64,000 bases of DNA from Candidatus Latescibacterota bacterium. GTDB taxonomy: Bacteria; Latescibacterota; UBA2968. Positions 19,779-23,410 of the stretch are shown here, piece by piece. The stretch's first letter is position 1, and every line of letters starts with the position of its first letter. The translations under genes and the position numbers were made by a program. The notes beneath the pieces are model-generated. The model saw nothing but the letters and a program-made list of their open reading frames with translations, was not told the DNA's origin and searched no databases. The DNA is taken from positions 3,520,001 to 3,584,000 of the forward strand of contig OZ242311.1 in assembly GCA_965207885.1 (NCBI GenBank), given 5' to 3'.

Positions 19779-20876
19779 ATGAACGACCTTGCAATCTATT
19801 TCATCACAAGCCTTTGCGCTGTGTACATCACGCTGATCGTCGTTTTTTTGTTTGGTCTTTTTCGCAGATTGCGGCGAGTAAATGGACGCCGTCTATCTGT
19901 TTCCGTTATTGTCCCCGCCCGCAATGAAGCCACCAACATCGATGCGTGTTTGCGGGCATTGGCTGCACAGACCTATCCTGACGACCATCTGGAAATTATC
20001 GTTGTAGATGACCGATCCACAGATGATACCGCCGCTCGAATTGATCAATGGACGCGCCGTTTACCCAACCTGAGTCGCGTATCTGTCACACAGCAGGACT
20101 ATATTTGCCCCAAAAAAAACGCCCTGTGGCAGGGCATCAAACACGCGCGCGGAGATATTATTTTTACGACAGACGCCGATTGTCGGCCCGGTCCCAACTG
20201 GATAACCTCAACCCTCGCGCACTTTGCGCCCGATGTCGGCATGGTCATAGGCCACGCTCCCCTGCTGCAAAACGAAAAAGCGCTATCGGGTCTGCTATCT
20301 CTCCAGGCACTCATTGTCTCAACTCTCGCAGCGGGCAGCGCGGGTATTGGCTTCCCGCTCACCTGTTCGGGGCGCAACATGGCTTATCGCAGAAAAGCCT
20401 TTGATGAGGCCAACGGCTTTAACGACATCGGACACATCATCGGCGGCGACGATGTATTGCTCATGCGCCAATTCGCTCAAAAAAGCGCGTGGAAAATTCG
20501 GTTCAACGCAGACGCCGATACGTTCGTTCCCTCGGCGTCTCACCCAGACAATCTCATCAATCGACAGGTGCGCTACCAATCCAAAACCATTCACTACGGC
20601 ATTCCCACCTTGATTCTGGCTCTTTCGGTGTATATATTCCATGTCGTTCTGGCGACGCTGCCCATTTTATTCTGGACCAACGCGGAATTATTTTATATGA
20701 TCGGCTCTTGCCTGGGAATAAAAATAATCGCCGATGCCGTTTTTTTGCTCTTCGGCAGTATCCGCTTCAAAAGCCTGAAATTGCTCCTGTGGTTTCCAGT
20801 TCTCGAAATCCTGATCATACCCTATATTGTCATCTTATGCGCGCTCGGCACATTTTCACCATTCAAATGGAAGTGA
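19779..20876 (+). CDS. GT2 glycosyltransferase (membrane-anchored)
   Basis: VPARNE, DDRSTD, TDAD and GDD motifs. The stop codon is supplied by the IS end. Confidence 0.9.
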   Translation: MNDLAIYFITSLCAVYITLIVVFLFGLFRRLRRVNGRRLSVSVIVPARNEATNIDACLRALAAQTYPDDHLEIIVVDDRSTDDTAARIDQWTRRLPNLSRVSVTQQDYICPKKNALWQGIKHARGDIIFTTDADCRPGPNWITSTLAHFAPDVGMVIGHAPLLQNEKALSGLLSLQALIVSTLAAGSAGIGFPLTCSGRNMAYRRKAFDEANGFNDIGHIIGGDDVLLMRQFAQKSAWKIRFNADADTFVPSASHPDNLINRQVRYQSKTIHYGIPTLILALSVYIFHVVLATLPILFWTNAELFYMIGSCLGIKIIADAVFLLFGSIRFKSLKLLLWFPVLEILIIPYIVILCALGTFSPFKWK

Positions 20877-20913
20877 CTACTCCCACGCCTAAAAGCTGTG
20901 GGCTTCTTGGTGG

Positions 20914-22038
20914 TCAAGCCACCTGACGTTGTAGCCCCAACGTCAATATGTTTATCGCAGCATTGTGGTCTCTGTCCGTCTTATAGCCACACGCCTTGCA
21001 ATGATGCACACGATCTGAGAGTGTCTTTTTCTCTCTATGTCCGCATGCCGAGCAATCTTGTGACGTGTATTCAGGATCAACGGCCTTGAATCCAATACCA
21101 GCCTCTTCCGCTTTGTATTCGAGACAGTGCCGAAACAGTGACCACGCTACGTCTGCTATTGATTTAGCCAATCGCTTGTTCTTCTGCATCTCTTTAACGT
21201 CCAATTTCTCTACGGCTATGAAATTGTGACGATTGACCATTTTTCTTGACTCTTGGTGTGCAAAGTTATGTCGCTTATTACGGATGCGCTCATGCACTCT
21301 ACCAATGACTTTACGACGCTTTTCTCTTGTGGGATCGGTCTTGGGTCTTTTTTTCACCGCGTCCCATTTGCGCTGTGCTTTGGCAAGAGCCTTTTCCTCT
21401 TTGCGAAAGAATCTCTGATTCTCTATTTTTTCGCCGTCACTGGTCACAGCAAAGGAATTGAGACCCACGTCAATGCCAACAGCAGAGTTAGTGTTTGGTT
21501 TCTTATCTTTTTCGCCAATATCGCAAGAGATAGACACGAACCATTTGCCTGTTTCTGTGCGTGTGATTGTGCAAGACTTAGGCACACCCTCAAGTGGCCT
21601 GTGCTGGACAATGCGAATGCAACCAATACTGCCCAATCGCAAGCCCTTGCCGTCCAATCGACATCCATTGGAAAACTGAGGGTAGGTGATAGAATCGTAG
21701 CGATTCTCATTCTTGTATCTGGGAAAACCCGCTTTCTCGCCAGTCTTTGACTTCTCTTTGAGACGGCGAAAGAAACCTTTGAATGCCAAATCTACTCTCT
21801 GTGATACTTGTTGCAACACTTGACTATATACTTGCTTGAAAGCAACGTGCTGTTGTTTTAACAATGGTATTGTTTTAGTCTGGTCATATTGCGAGAGAGA
21901 CTTATTCTCATTTTTCCATGCTTGTATTCTCGCACAGAGTAATTGATTATAAAGAATACGACATTCGTCAATATGCGCCAGCAAGATTTGTTCTTGCTTT
22001 TTGGTTGGACGCAATCTATATTTGAACGACTTAAACAT
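20914..22038 (-). CDS. tnpB: RNA-guided endonuclease TnpB
   Basis: KYRLRP HTH, RuvC residues GIDVG / VEKL / DRDxNAA, zinc finger CSAC...CKAC. Confidence 0.95.
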   Translation of the reverse strand: MFKSFKYRLRPTKKQEQILLAHIDECRILYNQLLCARIQAWKNENKSLSQYDQTKTIPLLKQQHVAFKQVYSQVLQQVSQRVDLAFKGFFRRLKEKSKTGEKAGFPRYKNENRYDSITYPQFSNGCRLDGKGLRLGSIGCIRIVQHRPLEGVPKSCTITRTETGKWFVSISCDIGEKDKKPNTNSAVGIDVGLNSFAVTSDGEKIENQRFFRKEEKALAKAQRKWDAVKKRPKTDPTREKRRKVIGRVHERIRNKRHNFAHQESRKMVNRHNFIAVEKLDVKEMQKNKRLAKSIADVAWSLFRHCLEYKAEEAGIGFKAVDPEYTSQDCSACGHREKKTLSDRVHHCKACGYKTDRDHNAAINILTLGLQRQVA

Positions 22039-22044
22039 AATAAA

Positions 22045-22073
22045 AATATACACTTAGGTATTGTTTTTGTCAA
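22045..22073 (-). promoter_or_regulatory. tnpB promoter (probably a leaderless transcript)
   Basis: TTGACA-N17-TATATT, with the ATG (22038) 6 nt downstream. Confidence 0.7.
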
Positions 22074-22351
22074 GTTGAAAGAGCACTCATGCTAAGCATG
22101 TTCCGTAACGATTCTACACGGAAGCAAACCAAAACCGTAAGCCCTTCGCCATGCGACCCACGCCTAAAGGCTGTGGGTTTTACGGGCTATTTGATAACCA
22201 CCCCTCTGCCCCGAGATTATCCACTAAGAACACGGAACGGGGTATGAAGGCGAGTAATTTGAGCATGACTGGCCGTCTCTTAGGCCAGTTCACGACACGA
22301 AGGATTCTCACGCTCACGCACTTTCGCCCCTTTCACTCAGAGACACAACTT

Positions 22352-23410
22352 ATGCTCTCAATCAAACTGCTGCCCGAAACCTTTATGCGATACCATCGCG
22401 CAATCACGCCCCGACGGATATGGAATGCCTCAAAAGTGGTCGCGTCCTACGCCCTCTCCAATCTATTTCGGCGGGATATTCGCCTGGGCAAACCCTTTGT
22501 GCTCATGGTCGAACCCACCAATTTCTGCAACCTCAAATGTCCGCTTTGCCCCTCTGGCAATGGCGACATGACCCGCGAGCGCGGCATTATGCCATTTGAA
22601 CACTTCAAGCATGTCTTTGAGCAACAGGCCGATCATCTCCTGCTCCTCATGTTGTGGAATCAGGGTGAACCCTTTATCAACAAACACCTCACCGACATGA
22701 TCCGGTTGGCCTCCGCACACAATGTCCCCACACTGACCAGCACCAATGTCCACTACATCAAAAACCGGGAAACCGCTCGAGACATCGTCGATTCCGGCCT
22801 TTCCGAACTCGTGGTCTCTCTGGATGGCGTCACATCCGAAAGCTATGTCAAATATCGCGTGGGGGGCAATTTTGACCGCGTACTCGAAGGCATCCGCCTC
22901 CTTGTTCAGGCCAAAAGCGACCTGCAAAGCAGCTATCCCCTGATCCACCTGCAATTTATAATTATGAAACACAACGAACACGAAATTGAAGCCGCACGCA
23001 AATTCGCTCGGGAGTTAGGCGTAGATCGCCTCTCGCTCAAAACAGCCCAGGTCTATACCGAATCCGATATAGAGACTTTCTTGCCCTCTGACGAGAAATT
23101 CAGCCGCTACGATTACACAGCCGACCACCTCTCGACCAAAAGCAAAATTAGCAATACCTGCCGCCACCTGTGGTACAGCACTGTCATCAATTGGGACGGC
23201 GCTGTATCGCCCTGTTGCTTTGACAAAGATGTTCACTACGGCCTCGGCGATGCCCTCAGTGAATCGGACTTCGACCAGATCTGGACCGGCCAAAAATACA
23301 CGGACTTCCGCAATGCCATCCTCAAAGACCGCAAATCTGTGCCGATATGCAACAACTGCTCAGAAGGGGTGAAGGGCATGTTTTACGATATAGAAAAAGT
23401 TGAGCACTGA
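22352..23410 (+). CDS. Radical SAM/SPASM-twitch domain protein
   Basis: CNLKCPLC, GEP and C-terminal C...PCC...CNNC. Start moved downstream of the IS end. Confidence 0.9.
   Translation: MLSIKLLPETFMRYHRAITPRRIWNASKVVASYALSNLFRRDIRLGKPFVLMVEPTNFCNLKCPLCPSGNGDMTRERGIMPFEHFKHVFEQQADHLLLLMLWNQGEPFINKHLTDMIRLASAHNVPTLTSTNVHYIKNRETARDIVDSGLSELVVSLDGVTSESYVKYRVGGNFDRVLEGIRLLVQAKSDLQSSYPLIHLQFIIMKHNEHEIEAARKFARELGVDRLSLKTAQVYTESDIETFLPSDEKFSRYDYTADHLSTKSKISNTCRHLWYSTVINWDGAVSPCCFDKDVHYGLGDALSESDFDQIWTGQKYTDFRNAILKDRKSVPICNNCSEGVKGMFYDIEKVEH

Follow-up and report, generated by a model that had tools for sequence, protein, structure and literature searches.

A TnpB-only IS200/IS605-family element in Candidatus Latescibacterota that replaces a TAA stop codon with TGA at its insertion site

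Introduction

IS608 of Helicobacter pylori, the subject of work by Barabas et al. in 2008, reportedly inserts at the target TTAC, carries the right-end cleavage motif TCAA and holds DNA guides 5' of its hairpins. Here we describe an element of similar layout in a window of 64,000 nt (contig OZ242311.1, positions 3,520,001 to 3,584,000 of the forward strand; all coordinates below count from the first letter of this window) from the 6.2-Mb genome of a Candidatus Latescibacterota bacterium. The element (20873..22193, minus strand) is an ordinary new TnpB-only member of the IS200/IS605 family that sits in the last codon of a glycosyltransferase gene and leaves the encoded protein unchanged. It resembles IS608 in inserting 3' of a tetranucleotide without duplication, in having subterminal hairpins and in what appears to be the reading of the target by a DNA guide, which a covariation seen at 59 of 63 sites fits; IS608 carries its own tnpA, whereas the element described here does not. 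The IS608 pair TTAC/TCAA would likewise turn G+TAA into T+TGA, and our literature searches found no report of the IS608 motif pair regenerating stop codons.

Among natural TnpB proteins of solved structure, that of ISDra2 (PDB 8exa, 8h1j) is the closest homologue of the protein encoded here (E 2.1e-52 over residues 3-365). The transposon-adjacent motif (TAM) of ISDra2 is TTGAT, the reverse complement of which holds no stop codon, so the exchange of stop codons that we describe would not follow from it. A nearer parallel is ISGst2 of Geobacillus stearothermophilus, an IS605-family element whose TnpB2 has the proven TAM TTTAT (Meers et al., 10.1101/2023.03.14.532601). As presented in the main text of that report, ISGst2 has a TnpB, both transposon-adjacent and transposon-encoded motifs, an omegaRNA at its right end and a TAM ending in TTAT, as we predict for the element here, and many of its copies lack tnpA and are mobilised in trans, as we likewise propose. 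ISGst2 is backed by biochemistry, whereas our element is known from its sequence. Neither "stop codon" nor "TCAC" occurs in the main text of 10.1101/2023.03.14.532601, supplements aside, which may list insertion contexts. IStrons, in which a group I intron is combined with an IS605 or IS607 element, are, as far as their description in 10.1101/2023.11.20.567912 goes, another case of a TnpB transposon that lowers the cost to its host upon landing in a gene; IStrons mend the transcript by splicing, whereas in the element here the ends of the DNA itself close the reading frame, and do so only at stop codons. Full-text literature searches, which reached neither supplements nor subscription journals, returned no description of stop-codon regeneration by IS200/IS605 elements.

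Results

The host of the insertion is a GT2 glycosyltransferase gene (19779..20876, plus strand; 365 aa; Pfam Glycos_transf_2, E 3.8e-25). The element lies between ...TGGAA and ATAA of this gene, which at present ends TTC AAA TGG AAG TGA with its stop at 20874-20876; the third base of the last codon and the stop (AAG TGA, 20871-20876) are thus partly derived from the element, and the displaced ATAA (22194-22197) adjoins the element's other end. Deleting 20873-22193 in silico restores TTC AAA TGG AAA TAA. The initial annotation of the window had read the region 20861-22197 in just this way and had predicted from it what an uninterrupted gene should look like, and that predicted empty allele, ...TGGAAATAACCACC..., is present in a genome of the same genus, G009. 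At the place of insertion G009 (L034) reads TTCAAATGGAA followed directly by ATAACCACCCCTCTGCCCCGAG, which equals the predicted ...TGGAAATAACC..., including a spacer that comes after ATAA. Because the empty allele matches the prediction, the inserted block is exactly 20873-22193 (1321 nt). The change is AAA TAA to AAG TGA, a lysine codon and a stop in both alleles, so that the earlier claim of an insertion in the last codon without change to the protein holds.

The 3' part of the glycosyltransferase gene is found in 20 of 20 other genomes of the genus, and ten relatives besides G009 have A/G+TAA at the insertion place. Nine of the ten (L032, L033 and L035-L041, L034 being the exception in this series) read ...GGAAATAATATG, that is, TTCAAATGGAA, ATAA and TATG in succession, a form in which the TAA stop is followed by one base and then by the ATG of a radical-SAM gene, with no spacer; the tenth, G002, has GTAA at the same place (GGAAGTAATATG). 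None of the 20 other genomes has the element at this site (11 junctions were read; the remaining right ends have other flanks). Both junctions of the filled allele are covered, with 0 to 4 differing letters, by contigs from the public runs X1 and X5, which belong to two studies, and the insertion is therefore not an artefact of assembly. No contig of the exact excision product, with 20872 joined to 22194, was found in the 4 runs searched.

The ends are also fixed by other copies of the element. A search of the bacterium's own genome with the element plus 150-nt flanks gave 32 matches. In all nine copies of at least 84% identity, and likewise in a short fragment, similarity stops precisely at the TCAC end, while in two more distant copies the match ends 1 base past the TCAC end or 42 bases short of it; left-end matches, where present, begin anywhere from 7 bases before to 5 bases after the boundary predicted on that side. 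All 11 own-genome copies compared share the right end ...GGGAGTAGTCAC, and their flanks diverge immediately after it. At the left end the common sequence runs up to a C, and the bases preceding it are mostly TTAT; one copy has CTAT there and two distant copies have TTAA. Since the bases at the two junctions differ, the insertion point allows no shift in either direction. The limits of similarity among copies, the empty allele and the differing junction bases together bear out the earlier claim that both ends can be placed.

Read on the plus strand, the right-end terminal motif TCAC (20873..20876, minus strand), the putative transposon-encoded motif, supplies G+TGA, the host stop. Across the genus we parsed 149 of 151 collected right ends, of which 146 end in TCAC and 3 in TCAT; with the TTA-N flank at 63 sites, described below, this sustains the expectation that other copies share the same ends. 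The target motif, and predicted TAM, is TTAT on the element strand (22194..22197, minus strand) and ATAA on the plus strand, the displaced A+TAA end of the glycosyltransferase gene. Each end has an imperfect subterminal hairpin, CCCAC...GTGGG at 20882..20902 on the right and a matching one at 22157..22177 on the left (both minus strand). The majority type is CCCAAC...GTTGGG; the present copy differs from it at both ends together, the left and right hairpins of the same copy co-varying. The paired hairpins and the conserved right-end cleavage motif are those expected of an IS200/IS605 element. Directly 5' of the right hairpin foot the element strand reads GAAG (CTTC at 20903-20906, plus strand), and directly 5' of the left hairpin foot it reads AAAA (TTTT at 22178-22181, plus strand), the presumed DNA guide for TTAT.

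Two further insertions have empty counterparts. In one of them (L206 against L071; genome G010 against G007) TAT CGA TAA has become TAT CGG TGA; at a TTAC target, G015 (L142/L207), compared with G007, G002 and G000 (L209, L212, L213), shows TTG TAA turned into TTG TGA. Comparison of filled with empty alleles at the three sites shows insertion without target duplication and without terminal inverted repeats, in keeping with the initial annotation's appeal to IS200/IS605 insertion 3' of a short motif. We note that the site in G015 is the stop of a peptidase-M3 gene, at which the closest relative, G004 (L208), is empty and reads GTGA whereas the three other empty alleles read GTAA; GTGA in G004 may have arisen by simple point mutation, or it may be a change by which the TTAC target was abolished.

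Having collected right ends by a pattern search and by a protein-based search, we merged those with similar flanks, which reduced 151 to 109 independent sites. The pattern occurred 118 times, in 17 of the 31 genomes of the family and within a single genus, and a reversed-pattern control gave 0. A site was scored as lying on a stop when the longest frame at that place was an antisense open reading frame (ORF) of 100 aa or more that ended on the TGA within the element's TCAC. Judged by the right flank only, 15 of the 109 sites are on a stop, 44 are beside another long frame and 50 are neither. Sixteen distinct ORFs that close on an element TGA were scanned, 15 of them of at least 100 aa and the other of 89 aa; every one has NNG as its last codon. 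Pfam domains are present in 13, and in several they extend to the C-terminus (peptidase M3 as far as residue 688 of 690, QRPTase as far as 293 of 296).

Our comparison with chance rests on 64 sites at which both flanks could be joined in silico; the other 45 of the 109 were left out on account of contig breaks, right-end-only remnants and degenerate ends. The same crude ORF calling was applied to these 64 sites and to 9000 random TTAT sites of this genome. Stop codons account for 9/64 observed sites and 128/9000 random ones, positions 0-100 nt beyond a convergent stop for 7/64 and 265/9000, other intergenic positions for 21/64 and 943/9000, the last 16 codons of an ORF for 8/64 and 313/9000, and positions deeper in an ORF for 19/64 and 7351/9000. 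Deep insertions are thus depleted (30% observed, 82% expected), and intergenic sites, the 3' ends of genes and stop codons are enriched, stop codons the most. The stop-codon share is 14%, where random TTAT sites give 1.4% and non-genic TTAT sites about 10% (binomial p 1.3e-6 against all TTAT sites, from an earlier run). Stops exceed other non-genic TTAT sites by an odds ratio of 3.0 (p 0.008) and sites immediately past a convergent stop by one of 2.7 (p 0.048). When five-base contexts and TTA-N variants are considered, the expected share of stops ranges from 1.0 to 2.7% of all sites and from 7 to 15% of non-interior sites. The enrichment at stop codons that the initial annotation anticipated is therefore present in the family.

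These counts bear on the simplest alternative, that a lone copy came to rest on a stop codon and no pattern exists at the level of the family. A single hit would be expected at 1.4-1.9% of all TTAT sites and at the same tenth of non-genic sites, and in the bacterium's own genome 1 of 11 independent right ends is on a stop, so that one such hit is unremarkable; it is the recurrence in the family that exceeds chance. With 15 of 109 independent sites in the genus on stops, Pfam support for most of the ORFs concerned, the binomial excess over all TTAT sites and two more cases with empty alleles, we find mere coincidence hardly credible.

The choice of target can be followed at the 63 sites that have TTA-N directly before the left end (a looser left-end pattern also matched 21 sites with no real left end, in truncated copies, and these were excluded). 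At 59 of the 63 the fourth base of the target can form a Watson-Crick pair with the base directly 5' of the left hairpin (T:A at 43, A:T at 8, C:G at 8). In terms of the four bases 5' of that hairpin, TTAT goes with AAAA or AAGA at 42 sites, TTAA with AAGT at 8 and TTAC with AAAG or AAGG at 8; at the right end GAAG stands 5' of the hairpin in 148 of 149 parsed ends, beside TCAC. By analogy, the pairing at the fourth base points to targeting by a transposase of the IS608 type, in which target and cleavage motifs pair with a subterminal DNA guide (described in the main text of 10.1101/2023.03.14.532601).

The covariation also bears on a second alternative, in which selection on the element maintains the TTA-N and TCA-N motifs for scarless landing at convergent stops, or the transposase itself prefers the ends of genes. 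Stop codons are the most enriched class, at about tenfold over random TTAT sites where intergenic sites reach about 3.3-fold, and they exceed other non-genic sites by the odds ratio given above; moreover, TTA is kept in all target variants, TCAC in 146 of 149 right ends, and an autonomous relative uses TTAG with TCAA. Yet recognition by the transposase, as the DNA-guide covariation indicates, already accounts for the motifs, the threefold excess comes from crude gene calls and could arise if intergenic sites such as promoters and ribosome sites are not neutral, and many copies lie within ORF-like frames. We consider an adaptive safe harbour of this kind quite unlikely.

The tnpB gene (20914..22038, minus strand) encodes 374 aa when the start is taken at the ATG indicated by alignment to solved TnpB structures (chains 8bf8, 8exa and 8h1j, E 2.1e-52, residues 3-365). 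HTH_OrfB_IS605 (PF12323), the RuvC-like OrfB_IS605 (PF01385) and Cas12f1-like_TNB (PF07282) all score above the Pfam cut-off, and an alignment to 9yyg finds GIDVG, AVEKL, DRDHNAA and CxxC...CxxC; the first three of these we take to be the catalytic positions of TnpB, and the two CxxC pairs its zinc motif. Just upstream of the gene is a promoter-like site, TTGACA-17-TATATT (22045..22073, minus strand), a consensus match at 11 of 12 positions, the TTGACA and AT-rich box of which are conserved among copies. The last 240 nt of the element contain conserved stem-loops, as expected of an omegaRNA scaffold; 17 of 35 predicted pairs there show more than one type of standard pair, many of them one-sided G-U changes.

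From the known architecture of TnpB systems (as far as set out in 10.1101/2023.03.14.532601), the guide part of the omegaRNA would be the 16 nt adjoining the right end, TTCCATTTGAATGGTG on the element strand (20857..20872, minus strand), antisense to the last glycosyltransferase codons, and an omegaRNA so guided could direct TnpB to cut empty sites flanked by TTAT. In the empty allele of G009, TTAT is followed by the same 16 nt, and should TnpB act here in the way published for ISGst2, this allele would be one of its targets. A third alternative arises here, namely that the copy did not transpose to the site but was acquired, through homologous recombination or through homing driven by TnpB, from a relative already filled there. 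Homing of this kind into empty sites is a published function of TnpB (in the main text of 10.1101/2023.03.14.532601), G009 retains a suitable empty site, and the filled allele occurs in a run from a second study (X5); but no other genome of the genus that we compared is filled here, and a first insertion 3' of TTAT would be needed anyway. We regard arrival by either of these routes as very unlikely.

There is no Y1 transposase gene inside the element. The one Y1_Tnp gene of the genome (TnpA, G000:C1:1450928-1451281) sits elsewhere, at L196 (G000:C1:1449428-1452781, ORFs 1447-1866 and 1866-2969), a tnpA+tnpB IS605 element with related ends and hairpins, a TTAG flank with C at the guide position, and the end TCAA with GAAT. 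The L196 TnpA may serve as the helper that would mobilise the TnpB-only copies, roughly 12 in number, in trans.

The copies vary in several further respects. Read antisense, right ends (20873-20945 in the present copy, for example) close all three frames within about 17-23 codons, by TGA at +1, by TAA, TAG or TGA at +17 in the hairpin loop, and mostly by TGA at +51; because the right end closes three frames, a convergent gene hit in any frame is extended only briefly. The stop at +17 is kept at 101 of 104 sites, and we make no claim of selection for it, since a single transition is enough to change one of the variants TAA, TAG and TGA into another. Shortened copies of 310-950 nt also occur, either internally deleted or reduced to the right end (L092, L125/L139, L157, L131, L152, L144, L147 and L194), and three remnants still give TGA to host genes with Pfam support, a glyoxalase, a QRPTase and a glucose/sorbosone dehydrogenase. 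A subfamily (L095, L098, L100, L105, L107, L110, L111, L116 and L118) has a 34-nt insertion in the second right-end stem-loop (GGTGGAATGCATG...GGGTAACCACC), and most of its members also differ from other copies in the C-terminal region of TnpB. Two own-genome copies (G000:C1:84177 and G000:C1:6165585; L005 and L004) have identical flanks on both sides, and L164, from a third genome, shares the right flank; the identity of both flanks points to duplication of a segment containing the element and not to two insertions.

Downstream of the element, a spacer of 153 nt (22198..22350, plus strand) separates the displaced ATAA from a radical SAM/SPASM gene (22352..23410, plus strand; Pfam Radical_SAM and SPASM), the start of which we placed by comparison with relatives; a second GT2 gene follows. 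The spacer is present in a variant form in G009 and absent from 10 of the 11 relatives read, and 2 contigs of run X7 contain the spacer-less joint, 20872 to 22351 with ATAA between. We considered and rejected the spacer as a part of the element or as co-mobile with it, for other copies share nothing past TTAT and G009 carries the spacer with no element; it is, by this comparison, a separate and older difference shared with G009. Its middle differs in G009, and its core, which is about 60 nt long and contains a GACTGGCC...GGCCAGTTC hairpin, belongs to a short repeat that is matched dozens of times per genome across the genus (G009 has 41 matches, G015 35 and G018 33). We also note that the longest ORF of the radical-SAM gene (22151-23410) begins at an ATG in the left end of the element, 67 codons upstream of the start at 22352 used in relatives; the start at 22151 is probably an artefact of ORF calling, and automatic annotation could report a fused N-terminus here.

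Discussion

Resting on an anatomy, boundaries, empty alleles, a recurrence at stop codons and a target-guide covariation that are all directly observed, our preferred explanation, which we hold to be highly probable, is that the exchange of stop codons is a by-product of the motif pair of a non-autonomous TnpB-only IS200/IS605 element combined with survivorship. A Y1 transposase, most likely acting in trans, would have inserted the element as single-stranded DNA immediately 3' of TTAT, a target presumably chosen, as in IS608, through pairing with the few guide bases that precede the left hairpin on its 5' side. TTAT here was the reverse complement of the A+TAA that closed the convergent glycosyltransferase gene, and the TCAC end, the reverse complement of G+TGA, turns NNA TAA into NNG TGA and so keeps both the length and the sequence of the protein. 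The swap follows because the TTA-N that the transposase needs holds the reverse complement of TAA and TCA-C holds that of TGA, and, since all targets of the family are TTA-N, TAA stops are open to every copy, and each copy brings a TGA with it. Insertions within genes would mostly be lost, while those on stop codons would survive at least as well as intergenic ones, so that stop codons would accumulate copies, to about 14% of independent sites. Both the depletion of insertions in ORFs and the enrichment at stops fit survivorship. We note as context that TGA is in any case the commonest stop in the crude gene set of this genome (2142 of 5218).

Several observations weigh against this explanation, or limit how far it reaches. 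The family is not confined to harmless sites, for 27 of 64 sites are inside ORF-like frames and 19 of these are deep, and in the bacterium's own genome the stop-codon class is represented by that single right end among 11. Compared with other non-genic TTAT sites the excess is modest, and it varies with the method (p 0.02 in the earlier run; 0.008 and 0.048 in the both-flank comparisons); genes were called crudely, by longest ORF, and a single genome supplied the null. Tests on the right flank only give far smaller p values that overstate the effect, and we set them aside: where a gene enters from the other side, sites within its last 100 codons were counted as non-genic, which inflates the null. 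Two of the 16 distinct ORFs that end on an element stop have ATG as their last codon, which likely means a change from isoleucine to methionine if the empty sites read ATA TAA or ATT TAA. At the present locus the element, 1.3 kb read antisense, splits a tight glycosyltransferase/radical-SAM pair, an apparent operon whose genes abut in most relatives, and the host-sense strand of 20700-22450 has 4 terminator-like sites (5 on both strands, against 1.7 +/- 1.7 in shuffles). There is no Rfam match in 20700-22450 at E up to 1, and contigs of the RNA library X14 touch the element, contigs being uninformative as to transcription, RNA ends and strand.

The initial annotation went further and described stop codons as a safe harbour for this family of elements. 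That stop codons are over-represented, and that the protein is kept, both stand; the excess over non-genic sites, however, is only about threefold, a gene pair has been split and 2 of 16 cases end in ATG, so that "safe" holds for the protein sequence only. The insertion may be neutral for the host. The threefold extra may reflect adaptation, a bias of the transposase or intergenic sites that are not neutral. It is conceivable, if rather doubtful, that the TTA-N/TCA-N pair, perhaps in many IS200/IS605 families, is kept in part because it makes scarless landing sites of the stops of convergent genes, an adaptation of the element that lowers the cost to its host; were this so, it would explain the occupancy of stops at about three times that of other non-genic TTAT sites, and it would place the guide of the omegaRNA antisense to the 3' end of a host mRNA.

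The preferred explanation, a by-product of motifs that the transposase needs, offers a simple sequence rule for how very abundant transposons can sit in densely coded genomes at little cost. For annotation it means that the ends of genes beside such elements should not be called truncated or fused, and that the boundaries, TAM and guide of an element can be read from the stop codon of its host. For the biology of TnpB and its use in editing, the family described here has a predicted TAM of the TTAT type, with the natural variants TTAC and TTAA co-varying with a single base at the left end. The family also supplies three natural pairs of filled and empty alleles, and the claim made here for a bacterial genus rests on empty alleles and a null model.

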